This document shows, in pieces, positions 7,673 through 51,940 of a stretch of 51,940 nucleotides of DNA (within the stretch, counting starts at the first letter, position 1; every line of letters begins with the position of its first letter). Origin of the DNA: Escherichia phage MLP1. A model generated the notes under the pieces. The model saw nothing but the letters and a program-made list of their open reading frames with translations. It did no database searches and was not told the DNA's origin. The stretch lies in the sequence record NC_079176. One strand, given 5' to 3'. The position numbers and the translations under genes are program-made.

Positions 7673-7848
7673 CTCAGAAGTTCCCGGAAATAAAATACTT
7701 CCTGCACCGTCCTGTAATAGAGGACAGTTCTCTCTGTTCTCTTAAAGAACTCTCGGACGGAACCTACTCTATTATGGATTTGTTAACTTTCCACGCAATA
7801 CTTGATTTGCGTAATGAACTAAAACCTAAAGAAGAAGACAATGGCTAA
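7570..7848 (+). CDS. tail assembly chaperone -1 frameshift extension (long form)
   Basis: -1 frame has TGA at 7567-7569 then stays open from the heptamer at 7570-7576 to TAA 7846-7848, overlapping the tape-measure start at 7841. Confidence 0.5.
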   Translation, partial: FFQARARTQRTQTVGGGGSIQNGRAEEFESGNDLTQKFPEIKYFLHRPVIEDSSLCSLKELSDGTYSIMDLLTFHAILDLRNELKPKEEDNG

Positions 7849-10800
7849 GAACTTAAAAGATTTAATGAAGCTATCCGAGGCCGAGCTAATCGGCATGGGT
7901 GCTCAATATGGTCTGTCCTTCAATCCCGGTATGCGCAAACGAGATATGGCTCAGCAACTTGAATCAAGTGCTGCGTCAGGTTGGATGGAAACAAATTCAC
8001 AGCTTTTGGGCGAACCAGATTCCCAAATGTACGAGGAGGAATCCTCTTACGGGACTTCTGATATGATTTCAGATGCAGCACACGTAGCACAGATGATTTC
8101 TGGTGCTGGGCTGACTGAAACATTCCATGCTGCAATGAACGGACCAGGACACCATGTAGAAGCAGTTCACGCATACATGGAACAACTTGGTGTATCCACT
8201 GATGATGTTTGGATGCACATGCCTAAAGCCAACCCCAACAAGTCGGAAGGACATTGGGGAATGCTTAATTCGTACATGCGAGATACTCTTGCAGGTCATC
8301 AAGATATTATGCCTGAACTTGCCGGACATTATACCGGCAATATCATGGATGAATATTCCACAAACCGTGGAGATATTGCCAAGTCGTTTGGTTATCTTGC
8401 CCACATGTATGTTGACCGTGAACAGTACGACAACCCAGACCGCTATGCACGAGATGTTTATCGTGTAGCCAAACGTTTAGAATCAGAATTGCCGCAAAAC
8501 TTCCGAGAAGTTGCTGCCGTATCTGCAATGAATGTAGGAAATAAGTCGGGGCCAAAACTTTCATACATGGATTCATTGCCTCAACTTGGTTCTGAATCTG
8601 TTGTTGGGGATATTCTACATCCTCGACAACCTCTTAACGCATCTGGTCTTCCGATGGGTTCGTTTGGTGGAGGCATTAAGGCTGAATATTCCCTATCTGC
8701 ATCCTTGTCTGGTTCTCCAGGTTGGTCTGATGTAAGCAAGACACTCTACCAAGATGTTTCTGGCGTAGTTAAATCTGCGGCAAAAGTTTATTCTGGTGGT
8801 GCTGAAAGAGGGATGAATGCGTATCGCACTCAATCTTCTGACAGGGATTTGATTCTGGACTCCGCCTCTCGTTATGCAGACATTGCAGACGTTCGTTCTG
8901 GGTACGATAACCTTAAGAAAGATATTGGCGATGACCCTCGTTACTCTGGTTCATCTATTCGTGGCGTTCTTGAGAATGCTCACCAATATAATGAAGCAGA
9001 AGTTTCTCGAACATTTGACCCTGCCGAACGTTTAAGAAATACTGGACCTACTGAACTTAGTACATCCAGTGAGTTTACGGCAAATTTAAATGAACCGACA
9101 AGTTGGAACTCTGCAAGAGATAGAAGAGAGTCTATTGCTATTGCAAATCTCGATAGTGCTAGCGTTGGACAGCATAGTTCGGTTAAGTACCATGATGCGC
9201 TCGAGCAAGGTACGCAGGAGTGGCTTGATTTTCGTAAGCAGTATGATATTACTGGCTCTACTATTGGTGATTATTTGGGCCACAACCCCGCAACCAATAA
9301 TAGCCCAATACATACAATGGGCGAAAAGATTGGCCTCACAGTAAGAAAGGATTCGCCACGAGCGCGTGAGAACTTTGAGCGTGGACATAGATTAGAGGCG
9401 TGGGCGAGGCCCAGGGTAGGTGAACGGTATGGGATTGAGATAACTGAAACTGGTGCAATCACAAACGACAACTACCCTGGCATGATGTACTCGCCGGATG
9501 GGTTAATTGGTGATGATGCTTTGTGGGAACATAAAGCTCCAAATAACTTTAAAGATTTGGAAACAACTCCAAACTACATGGACCAGATGCAACTTGGTAT
9601 GCATTTGAGTGGTCGTAGTCGCACACTGTTTACCCAAACTGTTGGTGAAGAATCTAGAAGTCAGTGGGTTGAAGCCGACCCAACGTGGTTTGAACGTAAC
9701 AAGAACAAGATTGAATCCTCTCAAGCACGTATGAATGCTGGCCGCGAGTTTATGGAAAGCTCCGACCTTGATGGCAAAGACCTTGTTAATGAAACCCGCA
9801 AAGTTATGTCCGGTGATGGGATTTGGGGCTATCAGACTCGTGACCACAGGGAAGGTGAGGGATACACTGCTGGCAAGCGCGGGATGGCTAAATTCAGTGC
9901 CACTGCTGGTACAGCCGATGACCCATTCATAGGCAACCGTACCAGTGCCGGAGTTGGCGAAGCTACAGCCTCTGCCGTAGGCTCTGACAGCACGACTGGC
10001 AATGACCTGATGGCAGTATCTGTCAAGAAAGGTATCCTCGCTGCTCAGGAAGAAAACAAGCTGCGTGGACAAGATGCTGACTTTGGTGGCGATGGTGGTC
10101 GTGGCGGTGGTGGTGGCTTCTGGGATACCTTCGATGCAAGCAGTTACGGCATTGGTGGAGGCGGTTCCGGTGGCGGTGGTCGTGGTGGTTGGAATGTTGG
10201 TGGCAGCTTCTCAGATGACTTCGGTCGTGCTGGTGGTGCATTGGCTGCTGGCGTAGCTGGTGGCAGCATAGGCTCACTATCCAATGGTGCAATGAATGCC
10301 CTCATGATGACCCCGTGGGGACGTGTGGCGGGTATGGCTATCGGTGCTACCCAGATTGGTAACGAGGCGCTCGAAGGTCTGAACGATTTCTACGGAAACT
10401 CTTTAGACGCTGGTGTCAATAACCCTAATGAATATTCTTCCATGTCACAGGGCTTGGAGATGTTAGGGCTTAATCAGCAACAAGCTGGCCGACTCAATCG
10501 AACCACACATAGTGCCTATAACACCCTCCTGAATGGCGACCCTAGCGGCGCTGTCAACATCGTTCAGGGAACCCGTGGTCTTATCACCATTGGCGACATT
10601 CGTGCGGCACAGGGCGACCCTGTAGCCTTAGCGCGGGTAATGCGTGAACGTGGTCAGGAGCGGGGCTGGAGTCAGGCTCGCATCGCTGGTGCTATGGAGA
10701 TGGCAGGACTGGATGGCATGGCTCGCGCCTATGACCGTACAGATTACAGCGTGAACGAGGCTCAGGAGAACGTAAGCCGTGGTGCCAACTCACAGTATGC

Positions 10801-11536
10801 CGATGGTATTGCACAGCTAGGAATAGCGCAGACGGAGCGTGCTGGGGTGCTGCCAGGATACGCAGTCCCGCAAGCTGCAATATCCTACGGGAGTTCATTT
10901 ATCGAAGCAGGTGGAGATGCGGCCAGAGTAGCGCGTACAGCGTCAAATGGTTTAGCTGATACTACCAGAACGGTATATGACTTTATCGCAGGAGAAGAGT
11001 CAGGAAACCGCGATTTGAACGCAGATGGTTCGGTGGTTACATCTCCGACTGGTGCCAAAGGTCGTATGCAGGTTCTTGATTCAACTTCCCGTGACCCAGG
11101 ATTCGGCGTTAAACCTGCCCGTGATAACTCACTGGAAGAGCGTGCTCGCGTTGGTCGTGACTACTATGATGCAATGCTCAAGCGTTACAATGGTGACGCT
11201 GAGAAGGCTATGGCGGCGTATACGGATGGTGCTGGAACTGTTGATGATGCTATCAACAATCACGGAACTGACTGGCTCAATGCTGTTCCTCTACAGGCAC
11301 AGAACCGCGTCAAGAAGTACCGCGAATGGGCTTCTCAAGGTGATTCTATTGCAGAAGGTGCAACTGGCTTCACCAGAAACGGACTGTCCTACGGGCAGAC
11401 ACAGGCCACTGTGGTTAACGTTGAAGTCAAAGCTACCGTAAACAATAAGCAAGCGTCTGCAACCGTGTCAACTCCGAACGGTCAAACTGTTACCCAAACA
11501 ATCAACATGGGTAATGGTGCAATGGAACGTAGATAA
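7841..11536 (+). CDS. tape-measure-like virion protein with internal lambda-exonuclease/YqaJ-like domain, Gly-rich segment and C-terminal lytic transglycosylase domain
   Basis: 1231 aa, between chaperone and baseplate genes. Near aa 450-580: EQGTQEW..R..YDITGS, SPDGL..D..WEHKAP, YMDQMQLGM (compare lambda Exo EQGDDAW..ITAS, SPDGL..LELKCP, YMAQVQYSM). aa 745-790 GGDGGRGGGGG repeats. aa 1050-1130: AGEESG, GAKGRMQV, AAYTDGAG (transglycosylase-like). Confidence 0.6.
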   Translation: MAKNLKDLMKLSEAELIGMGAQYGLSFNPGMRKRDMAQQLESSAASGWMETNSQLLGEPDSQMYEEESSYGTSDMISDAAHVAQMISGAGLTETFHAAMNGPGHHVEAVHAYMEQLGVSTDDVWMHMPKANPNKSEGHWGMLNSYMRDTLAGHQDIMPELAGHYTGNIMDEYSTNRGDIAKSFGYLAHMYVDREQYDNPDRYARDVYRVAKRLESELPQNFREVAAVSAMNVGNKSGPKLSYMDSLPQLGSESVVGDILHPRQPLNASGLPMGSFGGGIKAEYSLSASLSGSPGWSDVSKTLYQDVSGVVKSAAKVYSGGAERGMNAYRTQSSDRDLILDSASRYADIADVRSGYDNLKKDIGDDPRYSGSSIRGVLENAHQYNEAEVSRTFDPAERLRNTGPTELSTSSEFTANLNEPTSWNSARDRRESIAIANLDSASVGQHSSVKYHDALEQGTQEWLDFRKQYDITGSTIGDYLGHNPATNNSPIHTMGEKIGLTVRKDSPRARENFERGHRLEAWARPRVGERYGIEITETGAITNDNYPGMMYSPDGLIGDDALWEHKAPNNFKDLETTPNYMDQMQLGMHLSGRSRTLFTQTVGEESRSQWVEADPTWFERNKNKIESSQARMNAGREFMESSDLDGKDLVNETRKVMSGDGIWGYQTRDHREGEGYTAGKRGMAKFSATAGTADDPFIGNRTSAGVGEATASAVGSDSTTGNDLMAVSVKKGILAAQEENKLRGQDADFGGDGGRGGGGGFWDTFDASSYGIGGGGSGGGGRGGWNVGGSFSDDFGRAGGALAAGVAGGSIGSLSNGAMNALMMTPWGRVAGMAIGATQIGNEALEGLNDFYGNSLDAGVNNPNEYSSMSQGLEMLGLNQQQAGRLNRTTHSAYNTLLNGDPSGAVNIVQGTRGLITIGDIRAAQGDPVALARVMRERGQERGWSQARIAGAMEMAGLDGMARAYDRTDYSVNEAQENVSRGANSQYADGIAQLGIAQTERAGVLPGYAVPQAAISYGSSFIEAGGDAARVARTASNGLADTTRTVYDFIAGEESGNRDLNADGSVVTSPTGAKGRMQVLDSTSRDPGFGVKPARDNSLEERARVGRDYYDAMLKRYNGDAEKAMAAYTDGAGTVDDAINNHGTDWLNAVPLQAQNRVKKYREWASQGDSIAEGATGFTRNGLSYGQTQATVVNVEVKATVNNKQASATVSTPNGQTVTQTINMGNGAMERR

Positions 11537-11542
11537 GAAAGT

Positions 11543-11570
11543 GCCGGGATTCTTCTCGGCATTCTTCTTT
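11543..11570 (+). terminator. intrinsic terminator-like hairpin with U-rich tail
   Basis: GCCGGGA/TCTCGGC stem (one G-U), loop TTCT, then ATTCTTCTTT; directly after the tape-measure stop. Confidence 0.45.
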
Positions 11571-11611
11571 AACATTATTTGAATATGTATTAATTTCAAT
11601 AGGTGTATAAC

Positions 11612-18080: not shown

Positions 18081-19471
18081 TGTTAAGACCAAAACTTAAT
18101 AGAGTCTGGACTTCGAACAATGCCAACTTACGGCGTGACCCTGGGGATGCTAAGTATCTTCAAGGGTGGATTGCAGAAATCCCAACCTTCCAGGTTCTTA
18201 ACTATTTGCAGTATAAGGTTGACACTACTCTTCTGGCATTAGCTGAACGTGGTGTCTTCGAATGGGGAACTGATGTTCAGTACGGACTTGGTTCCCTTGT
18301 GTGGGACGATGCAACTCGAACTGTTTATGTTGCAACTGTTGGTTCCCCCAGTCGTACTCTTCGCCCTAGTCAGAACTTAGGGCAGTGGGCTGCAAGTGCG
18401 ATTCAAGTATCTCGTTATGACTACGACGATATTGTTAGTAAGATTTCTGCACACATTGCAGATGTTACTTCTAACCCACACAGACTAACAGCCAACATGA
18501 TTGGTGCATACAACAAAGCACAAATCGATTCGTTGATTGCTCAATATAATGCCCTTGTTGCGAGTCATGCCAACGACCGAAACAATCCCCATCAAGTAAC
18601 TGCTGCTCAGGCAGGTGCTGTACCTATCATTGGCGGCACTTATTCCGGACCTGTTACATTCCAGCAAGGTATGTTGTTTGATGCAAGTGGAACCACAAAG
18701 CTGTCATTCGGTCCTGCTGGCTTCTATATGCAGTCTGGTGATACACGTATTGGTCTGGATGCCAGTGGTGTTCCAGTTGTTGGCAAGGCTTCAACAAACA
18801 CCAACTCTCGAATCATTACTGATGCAACATTTGCAGAAGTTAAGGCTCGTGAAGAACCAAAGTATGCTGTACCAGAACCAAACTTCTGCCAGCATTTGAT
18901 TGGTGACTTCAACATCTACTACGGAAAGGGTGCAATTAACGCCCCCGATAGCTTGTACTTCAACAATGCTTACGGTGGTGCTTTGTATCGACCTGCTGGT
19001 CAAGATAATCTGGATGTGATGTATGAAGGTGTTGGATATGGTTTTATGGACTGCACAATCTGTGTAGACATTCTATCTAATACACCTCGTGCACCGAGCA
19101 GTGATGATTCTGTTGGTGTATTCTTTTCCTTAAATGGGTTGAATAACGAGAACATAGATTTCTATTTGCAGAACAAAGGGCAGCTTAATATTAACCGAAA
19201 TGCCTCTGGAGCTAGTGATTGGATTTACTATAATCTTCCTGCCCAGGTGAATCGTTGGTATCGTATTGTTGCAACTCTTAGCACAACCACTGGTCTTGAG
19301 ATTTATGTTGATGGTGTTCGTGTAGCCTCTGATACTTCTCAGAATGCTGCTGCTGCATGTGTCGGAAGATACCCACAGATTCACTATCGCCCAACATCAA
19401 GAAACTATGCGGTTCGTAACTTCCGAGTTTGGGATTTCAAGATGACACCAAACCAAGTGTCTACTTTATAA
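18080..19471 (+). CDS. tail fibre protein with C-terminal lectin/jelly-roll-like domain
   Basis: NNPHQVTAAQAGA...GGTYSGPVTF motif; C-terminal 200 aa look beta-rich. Confidence 0.5.
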   Translation: MLRPKLNRVWTSNNANLRRDPGDAKYLQGWIAEIPTFQVLNYLQYKVDTTLLALAERGVFEWGTDVQYGLGSLVWDDATRTVYVATVGSPSRTLRPSQNLGQWAASAIQVSRYDYDDIVSKISAHIADVTSNPHRLTANMIGAYNKAQIDSLIAQYNALVASHANDRNNPHQVTAAQAGAVPIIGGTYSGPVTFQQGMLFDASGTTKLSFGPAGFYMQSGDTRIGLDASGVPVVGKASTNTNSRIITDATFAEVKAREEPKYAVPEPNFCQHLIGDFNIYYGKGAINAPDSLYFNNAYGGALYRPAGQDNLDVMYEGVGYGFMDCTICVDILSNTPRAPSSDDSVGVFFSLNGLNNENIDFYLQNKGQLNINRNASGASDWIYYNLPAQVNRWYRIVATLSTTTGLEIYVDGVRVASDTSQNAAAACVGRYPQIHYRPTSRNYAVRNFRVWDFKMTPNQVSTL

Positions 19472-19480
19472 GGTAATGTA

Positions 19481-20833
19481 ATGGCTAAAGGTTGGTCATT
19501 TGGCGGCTTAGTTGCCGCCTTAAAGTCTGCTGCATTCTTAAATGCAGGTACTGCTCGTGGTGAGGTAATCACTGTTGGACAAAAGAATGCCCAGATTCCA
19601 ACCACAGCATTTGTAAGAAACTTCAACTTCAATACATACACTTTTGTAAATGGTGAAGTTCTCTACGTTGAGATGAACTCTGCTGTCAACGTTCCTCCAG
19701 AGTTGCAGAGGTGGGACTTATCTTCTGTAAGTGGTGCATATGTAATCATTACGGTTCTTGGTATATCTGATAACAGTAATGCGTCAATCTTGGTAACACA
19801 TGGTCAGGCAGCACGGCCTCCGATTATGTATTACTCTCAAGGCGTATCTGGCAGCAGGGCGTACACAGCACATGCTGTAATGACTTGTAAGAGTGCCTCA
19901 AACATGAACATTAATTTGCTTACAGGTGCCTCGGATGTTGGAATCTACTACCAAGAGTCTGATAGCGTAGCTGGTTCTGCTGGTGGTTATCCGGCAGCAA
20001 TGGCTGGTACTTTGGAAGTTCTTCCTGCGGCACATAATGTTCAGCAACGTTATACATCAATTTACGGTAACGTCTGGGTTCGAAGTCGTACACTGGATGC
20101 CTCCCAGAATTGGGCCAACTGGAGGGAGCTTGCGCGAGTTAACCAGCGTGACCGCACCACAGAAGTTGCTGCAATAGAGTTGTATAATAACACTCCGTTT
20201 ATCGACTTCCACTATGCAAACTCTGGTTTGGATTTTACTGCACGTCTTATCGCAGAGGGCTACAACCAACTTAAGTTACTTGGTACTGGTCAGGACTTTA
20301 AGCTTGATTTGCTTGGGCAGTATCGTGGCATAACTTGGGGTCGTGGTTGGGGTCAGGAGGCAGACGGCAACGTTCCTTATGGTGTATACAGTTGTCAAGT
20401 TGCACCAGACTCCTGGGTTCCTCTCGCAACGCTGAACACAATCACAACTGGACATGGATATGGCTCTTGGATTTCTTTCGGCGCTTACTCCAGAACAGCA
20501 AACTTCTCAAGTCCTGTAATCTCACGCCGAAGTGATGATGGAGCAGTGCACAACTGGTTATTCGGTCTTGATGGCAACATTGACTATACTGGTGCTGGTG
20601 GTCCTTTCCGATTTGCACGAGAGAATTGGGTTAACTCCTCATTCATGAGCGATATTCGTTTAGCATCCTACCAAGAAACTGCTGCATGGCGTGGTCCTGG
20701 CTACCGCGATGAATCTGGTTGGGTTCTTACAGCATCTTATAACACAACTTCTGATGAATTTATTGACTACGTTGGCCGTCGTAAATTGCAGAAATACATG
20801 AATGGAACATGGTATGACAGTTATTCTGTGTAA
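19481..20833 (+). CDS. tail fibre / receptor-binding protein (putative)
   Basis: 450-aa Gly/Ser/Tyr/Trp-rich ORF at end of tail module. Confidence 0.4.
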   Translation: MAKGWSFGGLVAALKSAAFLNAGTARGEVITVGQKNAQIPTTAFVRNFNFNTYTFVNGEVLYVEMNSAVNVPPELQRWDLSSVSGAYVIITVLGISDNSNASILVTHGQAARPPIMYYSQGVSGSRAYTAHAVMTCKSASNMNINLLTGASDVGIYYQESDSVAGSAGGYPAAMAGTLEVLPAAHNVQQRYTSIYGNVWVRSRTLDASQNWANWRELARVNQRDRTTEVAAIELYNNTPFIDFHYANSGLDFTARLIAEGYNQLKLLGTGQDFKLDLLGQYRGITWGRGWGQEADGNVPYGVYSCQVAPDSWVPLATLNTITTGHGYGSWISFGAYSRTANFSSPVISRRSDDGAVHNWLFGLDGNIDYTGAGGPFRFARENWVNSSFMSDIRLASYQETAAWRGPGYRDESGWVLTASYNTTSDEFIDYVGRRKLQKYMNGTWYDSYSV

Positions 20834-21344
20834 GTATGAGGGGTTTGTTGAGAACACAAACCTGACTGAAAACCAGCAAGTGCTCAAGGATGAGCACAAG
20901 ATTCTCTTCGGATGTGATAAGAGTGGAACATGCTGGTATAAGATTCGCAAATCTTTAAAAGATGGTACGGCCAAAGTTGTCTACGAAAATGATGGCTCTA
21001 TCCGACACATTGACTTTGGTCCTGGTGACACTGTGGCCACACCGCTTGGTGGGAACATAGTTGAATTGGATGCGCTGCCAGAAGGTGTCGCAGAAGAAAT
21101 GCACTTCTGGAAGTTTGATGGTAAGAAGTTTGTACCTCATACCGAGAACCGCATGCTGTTCAACAAGTTCCGTCAGGGTAAAGTAATCTCCCGTTTATCA
21201 GAACAGATTGCTCTGCTTGATAGTGTGTTTGAATTGAAGATGCAAGAGAAGGGTGATGAAGAGGCTCTTCTTGATTTGAAGAAGAAGCGCATTCTTGTAT
21301 CTCGAATGGACTTAACTAAAACAATCGACTGGAAAGAATTCTAA
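20814..21344 (+). CDS. putative tail fibre assembly protein
   Basis: About 176-aa ORF immediately after the distal fibre gene; start ambiguous (ATG 20802 or 20814). Confidence 0.3.
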   Translation: MTVILCKYEGFVENTNLTENQQVLKDEHKILFGCDKSGTCWYKIRKSLKDGTAKVVYENDGSIRHIDFGPGDTVATPLGGNIVELDALPEGVAEEMHFWKFDGKKFVPHTENRMLFNKFRQGKVISRLSEQIALLDSVFELKMQEKGDEEALLDLKKKRILVSRMDLTKTIDWKEF

Positions 21345-21685
21345 TGGATAGACAAACTTTCCAAATGGTTTGGGAAGCAATGCACCAGTATGGAGTTCTT
21401 CATGGACTCCTAGCTGGATTGACTGCACTCATTCGTGGGGCGTACGAAAAGGAAGGCTTGCTGAAAGCTATTCTTGATGCCCTACTTTGTGTAGTCATTG
21501 GTACGTTTGTTTTCTCCCTACCTGGCTTCGTGGACATATTCAAAGATGAACCGCGCTATGCCACAATCGCTGCAATGGTGATTGGTTTGATTGGGGCTAA
21601 CCTAATCATTACCACAATTCGAGATTGCTTCACTGCTGCAATCAAACAACTCAACCCACTCAATTGGTTTAAGAAGGCCAAATAA
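21344..21685 (+). CDS. holin (three predicted transmembrane segments, lambda S-like layout)
   Basis: Hydrophobic stretches VLHGLLAGLTALI, LLCVVIGTFVFSL, ATIAAMVIGLIGANLIITTI; IRGAYEKEG...LDALLC resembles lambda S LRGRYNGG...IDATMC; directly upstream of a hydrolase. Confidence 0.6.
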   Translation: MDRQTFQMVWEAMHQYGVLHGLLAGLTALIRGAYEKEGLLKAILDALLCVVIGTFVFSLPGFVDIFKDEPRYATIAAMVIGLIGANLIITTIRDCFTAAIKQLNPLNWFKKAK

Positions 21686-21700
21686 TGCAAACAAGGAACT

Positions 21701-22261
21701 ATGATGCCCTCAGCACAAGTTCTTGCATTTCTGTTGGTGAGTCTGTTTCACGCAAATGTCCCAGCTTCGGCTGGGGCAGTGAACGCCACTATTACAGAAT
21801 TTGCAAGTCAATCCTATTTAAATGGAAGTCTGAAACTATCTTCTTCACAACGCAAAGAGCTAGAATGCTATACTAAAGTAATTTGGTTTGAAGCTCGTGG
21901 AGAAAGCAAACATGGAAAGATTCTGGTAGCTAATGTCGTCCGTAATCGAATCAAATTCGGGAAGCCATTCGCTAACACCGTTTGCGATGTAGTTTATCAA
22001 CGCAACCAGTTTGCTTGGACAAGAGAAGTAAAGAAGAAGAATGCTCAATGGAAGAACATAGTTAAAACAAATTGGAAGACTGAATCAAAACAGGTTTGGG
22101 ACGCCATGAATGTGGCAATTAGCTTCGCACTGTTGGATGCCCCAGATGTAACCGATGCCACTCACTTCTGCACAGCTACAGAGAAATGCAATTTCAAAAG
22201 GGTTGTTGGAAGAGGAACCTACGGTGGACACAAATTTTATAAGTATTTAGGAAATAAATAA
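21701..22261 (+). CDS. SleB-type cell wall hydrolase with N-terminal signal sequence
   Basis: WFEARGE...VANVVRNR...NQFAW matches the conserved core of the SleB/Hydrolase_2 family; N-terminus [24 protein letters not shown] is signal-like. Confidence 0.55.
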
Positions 22262-22263
22262 TA

Positions 22264-23382
22264 ATGGCTTACACTACCTTTTCACAAACCAAGAATAACC
22301 AACTATTAGAACCAATGTTCTTTGGTCAGAACGTCAACGTTGCTCGCTATGACCAACAGAAGTATGGCATATTCGAGAAGTTGATTGAGAAACAATTGTC
22401 ATTCTTCTGGCGACCGGAAGAGGTAGATGTTTCACAGGACCGTATTGATTATCAGAAGCTCCCACCAAATGAGCAGCACATTTTCACCAGTAATTTGCGC
22501 TATCAAATCCTTCTGGACTCCATTCAGGGACGTGGACCTAACACAGTTTTGCTACCAATCGTTAGCATTCCTGAGCTAGAAACTTGGATTGAAACTTGGT
22601 CTTTCTCTGAGACTATCCATTCACGTTCTTACACCCACATCATTCGTAATATTGTTACAGACCCAAGCATTATCTTTGATGAAATCGTAACTAACGAACA
22701 CATCAAAGCACGAGCAATTGGCATCTCCCAATATTATGACGAACTTCAACAACTCACTGCATTATGGCAGTTGTTCGGAGAAGGGAACCATGCTGGTCAT
22801 GAAATTAGTCTGCGAGAGTTGAAGAAGAAGCTCTATCTGTGCCTCATGTCCATCAATGCACTGGAAGCAATTCGATTCTATGTCAGCTTTGCTTGCTCAT
22901 TTGCCTTCGCTGAACGTAAGCTAATGGAAGGAAATGCCAAGATTATTCGACTGATTGCACGAGATGAAGCACTACATTTGACCGGAACTCAGCACATGTT
23001 GAATATTCTGGCGAGTGGTAAAGATGACCCAGAAATGGGCGAAATTGCTCAAGAATGTCGTGAAGAATGCCAGAAATTGTTCGAAGATGCTGCTCAACAG
23101 GAGAAAGATTGGGCTGATTATCTGTTCAAAGATGGCTCCATGATTGGCTTAAACAAGCAAATTCTGTGCGGATATGTGGAATATATTACGAATATTCGTA
23201 TGCAAGCGGTTGGATTAGATGCTCCATTCAAAGGTGCAACTAACCCGATTCCATGGATTAACGCATGGTTGAATTCGGATGCTGTACAGGTTGCTCCACA
23301 GGAAACGGAGATTAGTTCATACCTGGTCGGGCAAATTGACTCCGAAGTTGATACCAATGCGCTCAGTGGATTCGAGTTGTAA
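22264..23382 (+). CDS. nrdB: ribonucleotide reductase class Ia small (beta) subunit
   Basis: Near-colinear with E. coli NrdB from [11 protein letters not shown] to the C-terminal R1-binding tail; radical Tyr context RSYTHII and iron ligands ([16 protein letters not shown]) present. Confidence 0.9.
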
Positions 23383-23440
23383 CGATTAAATGGGAGAAGA
23401 GATTCGATGCGTTAGCGTCGTTTCTCTTTGAGCTAGAATA

Positions 23441-23468: not shown

Positions 23469-23537
23469 TCCCAATATTGCTACAATATTTAAAGTAGTAT
23501 TAGGAATGCGTAAAGTTCAAAACCAAGTGGTACATGG

Positions 23538-23591
23538 TCGGTCAACTGTATCTGGACATGGATTCGTTCACAATCGGTCAGCTGTATCTAG
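23538..23591 (+). repeat. direct repeat pair TCGGTCARCTGTATCTRG, spacing 36 bp
   Basis: Copies at 23538-23555 and 23574-23591; palindrome TGTTCGAACA at 23600-23609. Confidence 0.5.
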
Positions 23592-23678
23592 CCGGAATTT
23601 GTTCGAACAGTGGTCCGGCTATGTTATAAAAATTTTTATATAATTTTTTTTTTAATTTTAAATATTGTTACGGAATTA

Positions 23679-23730: not shown

Positions 23731-23899
23731 TAATTTTATTTTTGGGCCAGCGGGGAGGGGGAAGTTGTGACATTATTATTTTAAAATTTTTATCTCCGAG
23801 GAGGGGAAGCCCAACGTCCTATCGGACTTAAATACGGTCCCTACCCCCAACTTTTTCCTGTAGCCTATCGGCTTTCAAACAACACCAAGTTAGGTAGTG

Positions 23900-23921: not shown

Positions 23922-23955
23922 TCCGTGCTGTGCTAACAATGGCACAGGTTTGTGA

Positions 23956-23972
23956 TATTAGTTGGACGTGAA
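23956..23972 (+). promoter_or_regulatory. copy of recurrent 17-bp motif (tATTAGTTGGAcGTGAA), candidate phage promoter
   Basis: Member of an 8-copy family with consensus CATTAGTTGGATGTGAA, all in + orientation; 67 bp upstream of RNAP start. Confidence 0.4.
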
Positions 23973-24038
23973 TTGTGTAATGGCTACGCTATTATAATCC
24001 GTTTCATTCAAATCATACACAATCTTGGAGACTTACAA

Positions 24039-25979
24039 ATGACTACTATCACTACTCAAACTATCAAATCTGTTGTTCCTGCTATCACTGCTCTGGTATA
24101 CCGTGCCAAAGAGAAGCAGAACTACATGGTTCCACAGACTTGTGCTATTGCTGCCTTAGCCATATTCAAGATGATGACGTCTTTCACGCGTGATGACGTT
24201 ATTCCTGCTATCTCGATGGTTGAACTGGCTTCTGCTTCCATTGCTGATGCCAACCGTTACAACAACGACTTAAAGTCAATGCACTATGTTGACCCAGCTA
24301 TCAACCTCATTGGTTTGGCTAAACACTTCGGTTTCATCACCATGAACGAAGACAAATCGTTCCAGATGACTGATGCGTGGGTTGAACTGGTTACAACCAA
24401 AGATACCTCAGTTCCATTCACTGAGCGGGTAACAACTGAATCTCGTCGTAAGCCTTTCGTTAAGGGTGGCAAAGTTAAGCCATCCAAGACTCTGAAAGCT
24501 GCAATCGAATTCCTGCAAGATACTGAATATCACGTTGATGCAACAATGGTTAAGGTTATCTCTTCCATGTTAGAACAACGTACATTTGGTGGCTTACAGA
24601 TGCCAGAAGCAATCCAGACTGAACTCCATGTTTGGAACAATGCTGTAGCAATGGTTGGTCAGGACACTCTGTTCTCTGACTACTTTGCTGATAACCGTGG
24701 TCGTTTATATCACGTAGCATGTGCTGGTCCTAACCCACAATCATCTGACTTTGCTCGTTGCCTGTATTCCCACAATGTTGAGAACACTGTGAGCAAGTTT
24801 AATGCTGATGGTTCAACAACTCTGGCATACAACATGTTCATGCTTGAGCTGGAAGATATTGCTGGTGGAGACTGGACTTCTGCAAAACGTTTAACTTATG
24901 TTGCACAGAATCCTGCTGGTTCTTTGGCTCGTATGCTGAACATGCCTAAAGGTGAGCGTCCTTCCAAGCCATTCACTTATGTTCGTCTGGCTCTGGATTG
25001 GTTCAAGTTTGAGACTACAGGTGAGTGTGATTCTCGTGTAGGCTTTGGCTTAGATGCTAAATGTTCTGGTACTCAATACTTGGCATTCATTGCTGGTAAC
25101 ATGGAGATGGCTCGTGCAACAGGTCTGGTTGATTCTGAGACTAAAGCATCTGACCCATACCAGTTATCTCTTCGTGAACTGTTGAAGTTATTAGACCGTT
25201 CTTCAATGAAACCATCCGCTGAAATTATGGATGAATTCTTGAATCCGAAAGCTGGTCGTAAGTTTATCAAGACTCCATACATGGCTATTCAATATGGTGG
25301 TGGTAAAGCAGCATTAACTGGTTCTTCTGACTTCATTGCATACATGACAGAAGCTCTCCAGATTCCTATGGAGAAAGCTGATGCATTTGCTGAACTGTGT
25401 GTTGAAGCAATTCATAACGCATTGGGTGCTAAGATTAACATGTTCATTGAGAAAGCTGCTGATGCTGCATACAACCGTTGTGTTGAACTCAACAAAGAGT
25501 ACATCACATATAAGCACACTGATGGTCAAGTTGTAATGAAGCCTTGCTTCCCATCTCGTGATGTTTGTGATGCATTCAGCATTCGTGTTGACTCTCAAAC
25601 TCGTGTCATCTTTGGTCAGATTCAGGAAGAGAAACCTTGGACCATTCGTGAGTCCAATCCGACTAAAGAAGAATTCAAACGTACCTTCGTTGTTAACTAC
25701 ATTCAAGGTATTGACGCATTGGTTGCTCGTACTGTTGCAGTCAAAGCTAAAGAAGCTGGTCTTCGTGGCTTTACTTCAATTCACGACTGTTTCCGTTGCT
25801 GCTTAGCTGATGCTCCACTCATGATGGAAGTAATTCGTTCTGCTTATATTGAAATCTTTGTTAATAATAATCAGTTTGAATCTCTATCTAAGCAACTTGG
25901 TGGCATCAACATGTACCATGAGAACATCGTAACAGAAGAGCTTCTGATGAGCGAACACGCTTACTACTTCTGTCAATAA
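24039..25979 (+). CDS. single-subunit T7-type DNA-dependent RNA polymerase, compact form
   Basis: DAKCSGTQY (T7 motif A DGSCSGIQHF), RKFIKTPYMAIQYGGG (motif B), FTSIHDCF (motif C, T7 IHDSFG); ATG 24039 has GGAG ribosome-binding site; ORF track's upstream start at 23952 has none. Confidence 0.85.
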   Translation: MTTITTQTIKSVVPAITALVYRAKEKQNYMVPQTCAIAALAIFKMMTSFTRDDVIPAISMVELASASIADANRYNNDLKSMHYVDPAINLIGLAKHFGFITMNEDKSFQMTDAWVELVTTKDTSVPFTERVTTESRRKPFVKGGKVKPSKTLKAAIEFLQDTEYHVDATMVKVISSMLEQRTFGGLQMPEAIQTELHVWNNAVAMVGQDTLFSDYFADNRGRLYHVACAGPNPQSSDFARCLYSHNVENTVSKFNADGSTTLAYNMFMLELEDIAGGDWTSAKRLTYVAQNPAGSLARMLNMPKGERPSKPFTYVRLALDWFKFETTGECDSRVGFGLDAKCSGTQYLAFIAGNMEMARATGLVDSETKASDPYQLSLRELLKLLDRSSMKPSAEIMDEFLNPKAGRKFIKTPYMAIQYGGGKAALTGSSDFIAYMTEALQIPMEKADAFAELCVEAIHNALGAKINMFIEKAADAAYNRCVELNKEYITYKHTDGQVVMKPCFPSRDVCDAFSIRVDSQTRVIFGQIQEEKPWTIRESNPTKEEFKRTFVVNYIQGIDALVARTVAVKAKEAGLRGFTSIHDCFRCCLADAPLMMEVIRSAYIEIFVNNNQFESLSKQLGGINMYHENIVTEELLMSEHAYYFCQ

Positions 25980-51308: not shown

Positions 51309-51940
51309 TGACTTCCAAAAAGAAAAACAATCTCTCTGTTAAAGTTGCAGATGGGTTAGAAAACCTTGTAACGGGGTTGGGCGGTCAGGCAGATAAGTCT
51401 ACTTTTAACCAGTGGTCTTTCTCCAATAAGAACGCGAACTATCGCGAACTAATGAACCGCTTCCGTGAGGATTGGGTATCGCAGAAAGTGTGTACCGTTA
51501 TTCCTCAAGACATGACGCGTAAGTGGCGACATATTGATAGTGAAGAAGGGCGCAAAGCTGATAAGAAACTTCGTATCCGCAAACTGTTCCGTGAAGCATA
51601 TCAATGGGCCAGACTGTATGGGACTTCATTTGTATTACTCGACCTGAAAGGGACGGGTAAACTTGATACACCATTGCGTCTGGATAACTTGAAGACTGGA
51701 TGTATTAAATCCATGAGAGTTATTGACCGCTCACGTTTATTTGCCGCAGGAACTATGGTGCTGGACCCTCTAAGTCCTCACTATGGTTTGCCAGAATATT
51801 ACACTCTGGCAGGGTATCCCGGCTATATCCATTACACTCGTTTCCTTCGGTTCGAGGGTACTGAACTTCCACTGTTCGAATTCCAACGTAACATGTGGTA
51901 CTCTGATTCGGTACTTATTCCACTGCTGAAAACGATTGAC
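51307..51940 (+). CDS. virion protein, N-terminal fragment (possibly portal); runs off window end
   Basis: ATG overlaps upstream stop (TAATG); frame open for 211 codons to the last base; position after terminase. Confidence 0.4.

Follow-up and report, generated by a model that had tools for sequence, protein, structure and literature searches.

The class Ia ribonucleotide reductase (RNR) of Escherichia coli, whose small subunit NrdB (beta, or R2) is represented by PDB entries 1RIB, 1MXR, 6W4X and 7AI8, is encoded in the operon nrdA-nrdB-yfaE. A homologous nrdB gene is carried by Escherichia phage MLP1 (sequence record NC_079176), the DNA of which was analysed as one stretch of 51,940 nucleotides, hereafter the window. 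Its product is colinear with E. coli NrdB and shares with it the cofactor residues, the radical-transfer residues and most of the residues contacting the large subunit NrdA (alpha, or R1), but a surface hairpin is 4 residues shorter in the phage protein and the G+C content at third codon positions (GC3) is 42% in the phage gene versus 64.5% in E. coli nrdB. The gene order also differs, being endolysin-nrdB-terminator in MLP1 with no adjacent nrdA or yfaE, so the canonical nrdAB(-yfaE) operon is absent from this locus.

Phage T4 (NrdA/NrdB) and the jumbo phages (nrdAB) possess enzymes of the same family with the same presumed purpose, the supply of deoxyribonucleoside triphosphates (dNTPs), but carry both subunits; T4-type NrdB is ~52% identical to MLP1 NrdB, and the nearest phage NrdBs from outside the Chaseviridae are ~76% identical. 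Dwivedi et al. (2013) reported that class Ia phages almost all carry nrdA together with nrdB, with two having nrdB alone (PMC3653736). In Table S1 of that study, the nrdB-only members among 128 RNR-carrying phages are phiEcoM-GJ1 (hereafter GJ1) and Campylobacter phage CPt10; the nrdA of CPt10 was described as an interrupted pseudogene, and the functionality of such incomplete RNR sets was left unsettled (PMC3653736). The possession of nrdB without nrdA is real and rare in phages, and has been on record for GJ1 since 2013. Most chordopoxviruses also encode R2 only, and the hybrid complexes of vaccinia F4 with cellular R1 are functional and needed for efficient replication (PMC2900304). Like MLP1 NrdB, F4 is a small subunit encoded alone that has a host-type C-terminal R1-binding tail, and the same logic is proposed for both; however, poxviruses are eukaryotic viruses in which the gene was acquired independently, and the hybrid complex, proposed here for MLP1, has been demonstrated experimentally for vaccinia.

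The window represents a GJ1-like myophage of the genus Carltongylesvirus (Chaseviridae, Cleopatravirinae). The same gene is found at the same position (holin-endolysin-nrdB-terminal repeat/RNA polymerase) as GJ1 gp75, ST32 ORF79, flopper_26, Mangalitsa gp81 and PYps3T ORF084, and was noted as the last open reading frame (ORF) in the ST32 paper (PMC6266442). These orthologues share 90–99.5% amino acid and 85–97% nucleotide identity with MLP1 nrdB and do not differ from it in substance; the MLP1 protein has the 372-aa form of the GJ1/TH24/PYps clade, with LSGFEL in its tail instead of the LGGFEL of its relatives. Since the gene and its orphan status had been annotated and published previously, what is new here is the old age of the capture and the strong constraint on the gene.

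An intact NrdB without a phage-encoded partner

The gene and the two parts of its product discussed below are as follows:

22264..23382, + strand: nrdB, complete, encoding the 372-aa class Ia RNR beta (R2) subunit (PF00268, R2 structures, alignment)
22780..22800 (approximate, from residue numbers), + strand: shortened surface beta-hairpin, E. coli residues ~173–186 (alignments)
23275..23379, + strand: C-terminal tail, E. coli residues 341–375 with E350 and Y356, predicted to insert into NrdA (alignment)

The ORF matches PF00268 (Ribonuc_red_sm) with 170.8 bits (gathering cut-off 33.6) over profile positions 7–281 of 281, and a phmmer search of PDB aligned its residues 1–372 with residues 1–376 of E. 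coli R2 (E = 1.6e-205). In a global alignment 301 of 376 positions (80%) are identical to E. coli NrdB, the sole gap being one of 4 residues. Alignment with the E. coli protein shows that i) all six metal ligands (D84, E115, H118, E204, E238 and H241) are kept, ii) the radical tyrosine Y122 is kept along with its hydrophobic pocket (F208, F212 and I234), and iii) the radical-transfer residues W48, D237, E52, E350 and Y356 are kept. The iron ligands, Y122 with its pocket and the transfer residues are invariant in 10 phage homologues representing both clades of the genus. An earlier note, made by reading the letters of the window, had described a near-colinear, host-like NrdB with its iron ligands, radical tyrosine and C-terminal tail; this description holds, and the inactivating metal-site substitutions that it named as a possible refutation were not found. 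Differences from the bacterial proteins are the hairpin deletion, which removes 4 residues in MLP1 NrdB and 10 in the ST32/flopper clade, and 14 substitutions (including N131T, N343A and D369A) at positions invariant across 13 sequences from Enterobacterales, Pasteurellaceae and Vibrio.

No gene for a large subunit accompanies this nrdB. When the whole window was searched by tblastn, E. coli NrdA gave a best E value of 0.73 over 17 residues and YfaE one of 1.7, and no RNR-large, ATP-cone or NrdD domain was detected in the scanned ORFs of at least 399 aa. The 17 ORFs of at least 300 aa are structural, replication or packaging genes, and those of at least 550 aa are all assigned (tape-measure-like protein, RNA polymerase, primase/helicase, DNA polymerase and terminase). 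The thioredoxin-/glutaredoxin-type motif C[GPA][PYHF]C did not occur in any ORF on either strand. A divergent large subunit, or one of another class, was ruled out by the domain scan together with the negative NrdA search, and the orphan status proposed earlier is upheld for RNR large subunits of every class. In the curated annotation of GJ1, gp75 (nrdB) is likewise the sole RNR gene, with no nrdA. The earlier note had allowed for an nrdA in ~1 kb beyond the window. The window, however, is colinear with GJ1 as a circular permutation, with base 51940 corresponding to GJ1 30376 and base 1 to GJ1 30395, both within the portal gene and separated by a gap of 18 bp. Since its ends adjoin inside one gene, the window is essentially the whole genome, there is no room outside for an nrdA of 2.3 kb, and this candidate location was ruled out. 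The viral genome encodes R2 without R1; its nrdB is a genuine class Ia gene, maintained by selection, for which the phage supplies no partner.

Many early genes of the phage are hypothetical, and one of them might be imagined to encode an unrecognised catalytic protein that partners the phage beta instead of host NrdA. We consider this hardly credible, given that every ORF of at least 550 aa is already accounted for, that the NrdA search was negative and that the tail of the phage protein matches the NrdA-binding sequence of E. coli.

The predicted interface with host NrdA

Because no alpha subunit is encoded by the phage, its beta2 would have to dock on host NrdA. The beta residues that contact alpha were taken from the 2.6 Å cryo-electron microscopy structure of the active E. 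coli alpha2beta2 complex (PMC11551348, Tables S9–S11). Identical residues in phage NrdB were found at 24 of 27 side-chain contacts, 5 of 5 backbone contacts and 11 of 13 water-bridged contacts, i.e. at 40 of the 45 positions (89%) as compared with 81% overall; the direct contacts that changed are N131T, N343A and D368N. In the tail (residues 340–375), 30 of 36 residues are identical to those of E. coli, and the alpha contacts located there are kept except for N343A and D368N. By this alignment the host-type R1-binding interface is retained in the phage R2, and the reading that we favour as the most likely is that the protein pairs with host NrdA. The contact pattern would fit selection for continued docking on enterobacterial NrdA with some lineage-specific tuning.

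With a probability of roughly 0.7, we propose that the phage protein is a catalytically competent class Ia beta, captured long ago and kept by selection, which forms a chimeric reductase with host NrdA. An ancestor of Carltongylesvirus would have acquired nrdB from the nrdAB operon of a gammaproteobacterium, probably one of the enterobacteria, and the gene, having entered the unique part of the genome at its right end, would then have been retained selectively. A class Ia beta is of no use where O2 is lacking. The phage beta is expected to carry a diferric centre along with a tyrosyl radical, its conserved C-terminal tail would dock beta2 on host NrdA (alpha2), and the radical would travel along the path Y122-W48-Y356 to Y731-Y730-C439 of alpha. 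Such a chimeric phage-host enzyme may sustain or raise dNTP synthesis during infection. The phage has other genes for nucleotide metabolism, encoding thymidylate synthase, dUTPase and a deoxyribonucleoside monophosphate kinase, and the reductase would act alongside these three enzymes.

Several points weigh against this proposal. N131T and N343A affect sites at which 13 bacterial sequences do not vary, D368N occurs in 3 of the 4 phage sequences compared, and D369, which is invariant in bacteria but lies outside the listed alpha contacts, is Ala in the phages; with three changed contacts plus D369A, the affinity for host alpha could differ. Sister genera, including a Sabourvirus phage infecting the same host species, lack nrdB (see below), so that any benefit is not essential for such phages. 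The gene is located at the 3' end of a late unit without a recognisable promoter of its own, which is odd for an enzyme supporting replication. No functional study of NrdB in Carltongylesvirus was found in the literature.

The same changes at the invariant alpha contacts N131 and N343 and at tail residue D369 (not a listed contact), taken with the conserved tail and interface, would also suit a non-catalytic or antagonistic beta, one that sequesters or re-regulates host NrdA or heterodimerises with host NrdB without supplying a radical. A pure binder would, however, have no need for the iron ligands, Y122, W48, D237, E52, E350 and Y356, which are invariant in 10 of 10 phage sequences; a radical-dead R2 of vaccinia acts as a dominant negative on viral growth (PMC2900304), and a lytic phage must find dNTPs for a genome of 53 kb. 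We regard such a role as quite improbable.

Somewhat less remote, but still unlikely, is a catalytic beta that additionally alters regulation, either by out-competing the host beta or by escaping or weakening the feedback exerted by deoxyadenosine triphosphate (dATP) through the inactive alpha4beta4 ring, so that one small gene would deregulate dNTP production. In this dATP-bound ring, beta I297 packs on alpha I47, and the alpha-beta contact on which the ring relies is small (~525 Å2) and can be abolished by single substitutions (PMC11447812). The surface hairpin is trimmed by 4–10 residues in the phage proteins, and D302Q and Q306G lie near the contact residue I297. On the other hand, I297 itself, which fills the cone-domain pocket, and N300, which contacts alpha I47, are both retained, leaving escape from the ring through loss of a key contact unsupported. 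Nor is there a signal of enrichment of phage-specific substitutions among the alpha contacts (2 of 14 versus ~1.2 expected). Of similarly low probability is the idea that phage beta2 displaces host beta2 on NrdA and that, through the trimmed hairpin, N131T, N343A, D368N, D369A, D302Q and Q306G, the latter two being those near I297, the chimeric enzyme differs in the affinity of its subunits or responds less to dATP feedback.

Distribution, age and selection of the gene

The nrdB ORF matches 44 phage records at 85–97% nucleotide identity, from phages of E. coli, Shigella or Yersinia with genomes of 51–56 kb. NrdB at 90% identity or more and RNA polymerase at 90% identity or more each retrieve 44 records, and every sequenced Carltongylesvirus carries nrdB in the same place. 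The order holin-endolysin-nrdB-RNA polymerase also occurs on two metagenomic contigs. The remaining 63 Chaseviridae records are more distant (RNA polymerase identity 33–77%). In Faunusvirus and Loessnervirus nrdB is missing from the syntenic site, where the sequence ahead of the RNA polymerase gene directly follows the holin and endolysin genes; in Pahsextavirus and Yushanvirus no nrdB-sized gene was found upstream of the polymerase gene; and in the E. coli phage Sabourvirus 4HA13, the genome of which is complete, neither NrdB nor NrdA was detected by annotation or tblastn. Homology to the sister genera stops at the end of the endolysin gene and restarts near window position 23654. The lack of nrdB at this site in sister genera, together with the break in homology, indicates a genus-specific insertion of ~1.1–1.4 kb.

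Some of the records deserve mention for their own sake. PP952070.1 ("Staphylococcus phage Pel53", labelled Staphylococcus hyicus) is a Carltongylesvirus sharing the gene order of MLP1, with NrdB 99.2% and RNA polymerase 99.0% identical; since the rest of the genus comes from E. coli, Shigella or Yersinia hosts, the label is probably mistaken. In a 494-aa "NrdB" encoded on an NCBI contig, an internal segment is present in three tandem copies, each ending in PVSYTHLDVYKRQ, a peptide that is the translation of the Nextera transposase adapter; this protein looks like an assembly chimera rather than a real variant. In Sabourvirus 4HA13 (MN136198.2), the DNA polymerase gene at 18904–21493 is annotated as two joined pieces around an HNH endonuclease ORF (20431–20868), suggesting an intron or intein-like insertion. 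GJ1 has free-standing HNH genes beside its polymerase and primase genes.

The earlier note had suggested a recent capture from a host. That nrdB is an insertion where the sister genera have none agrees with a capture, but its recency does not stand. Each of 5,426 E. coli genomes has a match in the 60–80% nucleotide identity band, the best being 72%, and the synonymous divergence (dS) between phage and E. coli nrdB is saturated. The phage gene has 42.6% GC and 42.4% GC3, the 46 phage ORFs having a GC3 of 40.5 ± 4.0% (z = 0.47) and E. coli nrdB one of 64.5%; its relative synonymous codon usage correlates at 0.66 with that of the rest of the phage (other phage genes 0.49–0.93) and at 0.26 with that of E. 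coli nrdB. The comparison of codon usage and GC content, proposed as a check on recent capture, thus gave it no support, the values fitting the phage and not E. coli nrdB.

Comparison at the protein level, another of the checks proposed, gave 80% identity to E. coli NrdB, with phage NrdBs from outside the genus reaching at most 76%. When 5.8 billion proteins were searched, phage-clade clusters alone appeared at 90–99% identity among the matches listed, and the bacterial NrdBs among those matches (Escherichia, Proteus, Pantoea, Xenorhabdus, Hafnia, Pasteurellaceae and Vibrio) were 76–80% identical; of the bacterial NrdBs sampled, none was closer than ~80–81%. The NrdBs of Enterobacterales and Pasteurellaceae are 84–95% identical to one another, and phage NrdB is 77–82% identical to all of them. 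In a bootstrapped neighbour-joining tree the phage clade (100%) fell outside the Enterobacterales plus Pasteurellaceae group (99%), a placement that is unreliable owing to the long phage branch and the proneness of the method to long-branch attraction, whereas raw identity is slightly highest to Escherichia (81–82% versus 77–78%). Tree and identity together give no firm placement of the donor lineage.

Two forms of nrdB exist in the genus, one of 372 aa (GJ1/TH/PYps, including MLP1) and one of 366 aa (ST32/flopper/Mangalitsa), which are 0.69–0.86 apart in dS. As both clades have their form at such a distance, nrdB is older than the split of the genus, and its capture is old, not recent. The ratio of nonsynonymous (dN) to synonymous divergence is 0.015–0.04 within clades and 0.06–0.08 between clades, the dS values reaching 0.86. 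In the same comparison across clades, nonsynonymous divergence is lowest in nrdB (dN ~0.05), higher in the endolysin gene (0.17) and highest in the holin gene (0.34). The gene is under strong purifying selection. A recently captured host gene riding along as a neutral passenger would explain the host-like protein with its 80% identity and the location on a module border near the genome end, a site left empty in the sister genera. Such a passenger is very improbable in view of the 72% nucleotide identity and saturated dS relative to E. coli, the phage-like GC3 and codon usage, the closest bacterial donor standing at ~81% among 5.8 billion proteins, and the occurrence of nrdB in each of the two deep clades of the genus, the copies differing by a dS of up to 0.86 at a dN/dS of at most 0.08.

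The lysis genes have a different history. Relative to GJ1, flopper and Mangalitsa, the MLP1 holin and endolysin are 62% and 76% identical, respectively, and MLP1 NrdB is 98% identical to that of GJ1; GJ1 is a mosaic having nrdB from the clade of MLP1 and holin and endolysin from the other clade. With the lysis cassette mosaic relative to nrdB, a recombination breakpoint is placed at or near the endolysin/nrdB junction, and the neighbours have been shuffled by recombination while nrdB was retained.

Matches to the phage nrdB were also seen in 738 "plasmid" records at 60–80% nucleotide identity, 713 of which are predicted to be non-mobilizable. Most cover less than 80% of the gene (Klebsiella 351, Escherichia 171), and the 12 full-length ones listed sit in records of 130 kb–4.9 Mb that are chromosome-sized or very large. 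The partial matches, in ~700 other records, may represent phage-plasmids with RNR genes of their own.

Genome position, transcription and biological meaning

The features surrounding nrdB in the window are as follows:

11570..11589, + strand: match to the GJ1 phage-promoter motif, equivalent of GJ1 "promoter 9" (position-weight scan)
21344..21685, + strand: holin (PF05106; GJ1 gp73)
21701..22261, + strand: endolysin, a cell-wall hydrolase (PF07486; GJ1 gp74)
22249..22254, + strand: ribosome-binding site AGGAAA, 9 nt upstream of the nrdB ATG (read from the sequence)
23396..23429, + strand: terminator-like hairpin, 14 nt past the nrdB stop (RNA fold, terminator scan)
~23827, strand not applicable: left edge of a ~3.2 kb direct terminal repeat holding the RNA polymerase gene (Mangalitsa repeat mapped)
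23952..25979, + strand: T7-like single-subunit RNA polymerase (PF00940; GJ1 gp01)

The tail fibre genes precede holin, endolysin and nrdB. The endolysin stop codon (22259–22261) is 2 nt upstream of the nrdB ATG, and the AGGAAA lies within the end of the endolysin gene; an AGGAAAT motif has likewise been reported for the ST32 homologue (PMC6266442). The hairpin downstream of nrdB has a folding energy of -20.8 kcal/mol (z = -3.45, with none of 200 shuffled sequences equally stable), its inner stem was detected by the terminator scan, and its sequence is identical across both clades of relatives; it is likely to mark the end of a late transcription unit. A scan with a position-weight matrix derived from the 9 annotated GJ1 promoters gave no GJ1-type match between 11570–11589, which is 10.7 kb upstream, and nrdB. 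The search for a sigma-70 promoter gave 6 hits versus 10.2 in shuffled sequence, only weak 9/12 matches. With sigma-70 hits not above chance and no phage-type match from 11.6 kb on, a promoter belonging to nrdB itself was rejected. From this position we infer that the late structural/lysis transcription unit would end with nrdB, which would be expressed late.

Direct terminal repeats of ~3.1–3.2 kb that include the RNA polymerase gene are annotated in Mangalitsa and 4HA13, and terminal repeats have been demonstrated experimentally for PYps23T (PMC8762354). The boundary given for MLP1 is approximate, as the PhageTerm-annotated repeat of Mangalitsa was placed on the window by blastn at 73% identity. 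With the repeat starting near 23827, the unique region closes towards the right end of the genome with nrdB as its final gene, which follows the holin and endolysin genes and is separated from the right terminal repeat by ~450 bp.

The RNA polymerase gene probably starts at the ATG at 24039. A fair promoter-motif match at 23953–23972, just upstream of this gene, scores 18.4 as against 20–29 for the annotated sites and overlaps the mechanically called GTG start at 23952; GJ1 has solely a sigma-70 promoter annotated there. The conserved stretch that separates nrdB from the repeat contains two copies of TCGGTCA(A/G)CTGTATCT, at 23538–23553 and 23574–23589, 36 bp apart, which overlap a 45-aa ORF (23506–23643) that is annotated as hypothetical in relatives. 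TH24 has one copy, and in a metagenome contig a segment is inserted between the copies; a role as a signal for packaging or for the repeat boundary is conceivable. Farther upstream, 7841–11536 encodes a 1231-aa tape-measure-like protein (GJ1 gp62) with a YqaJ-like viral recombinase/exonuclease domain at residues 460–592 (E = 5.9e-11), which is unusual in a tail protein, in addition to the expected C-terminal SLT transglycosylase domain.

If the phage beta works on host NrdA, nrdB would constitute a minimal means for a small lytic phage of boosting its dNTP supply, and the first parallel from a bacterial virus to the hybrid enzyme made of poxvirus R2 and host R1. If regulation were altered as well, a gene of 1.1 kb would suffice to re-programme the host reductase, making it a counterpart of the F4-host R1 pair with a regulatory twist. 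Among radical-transfer systems, class Ia RNR of E. coli is understood best, so a natural beta variant with 80% identity, presumably selected to act on E. coli alpha, could serve to probe subunit affinity and dATP regulation.

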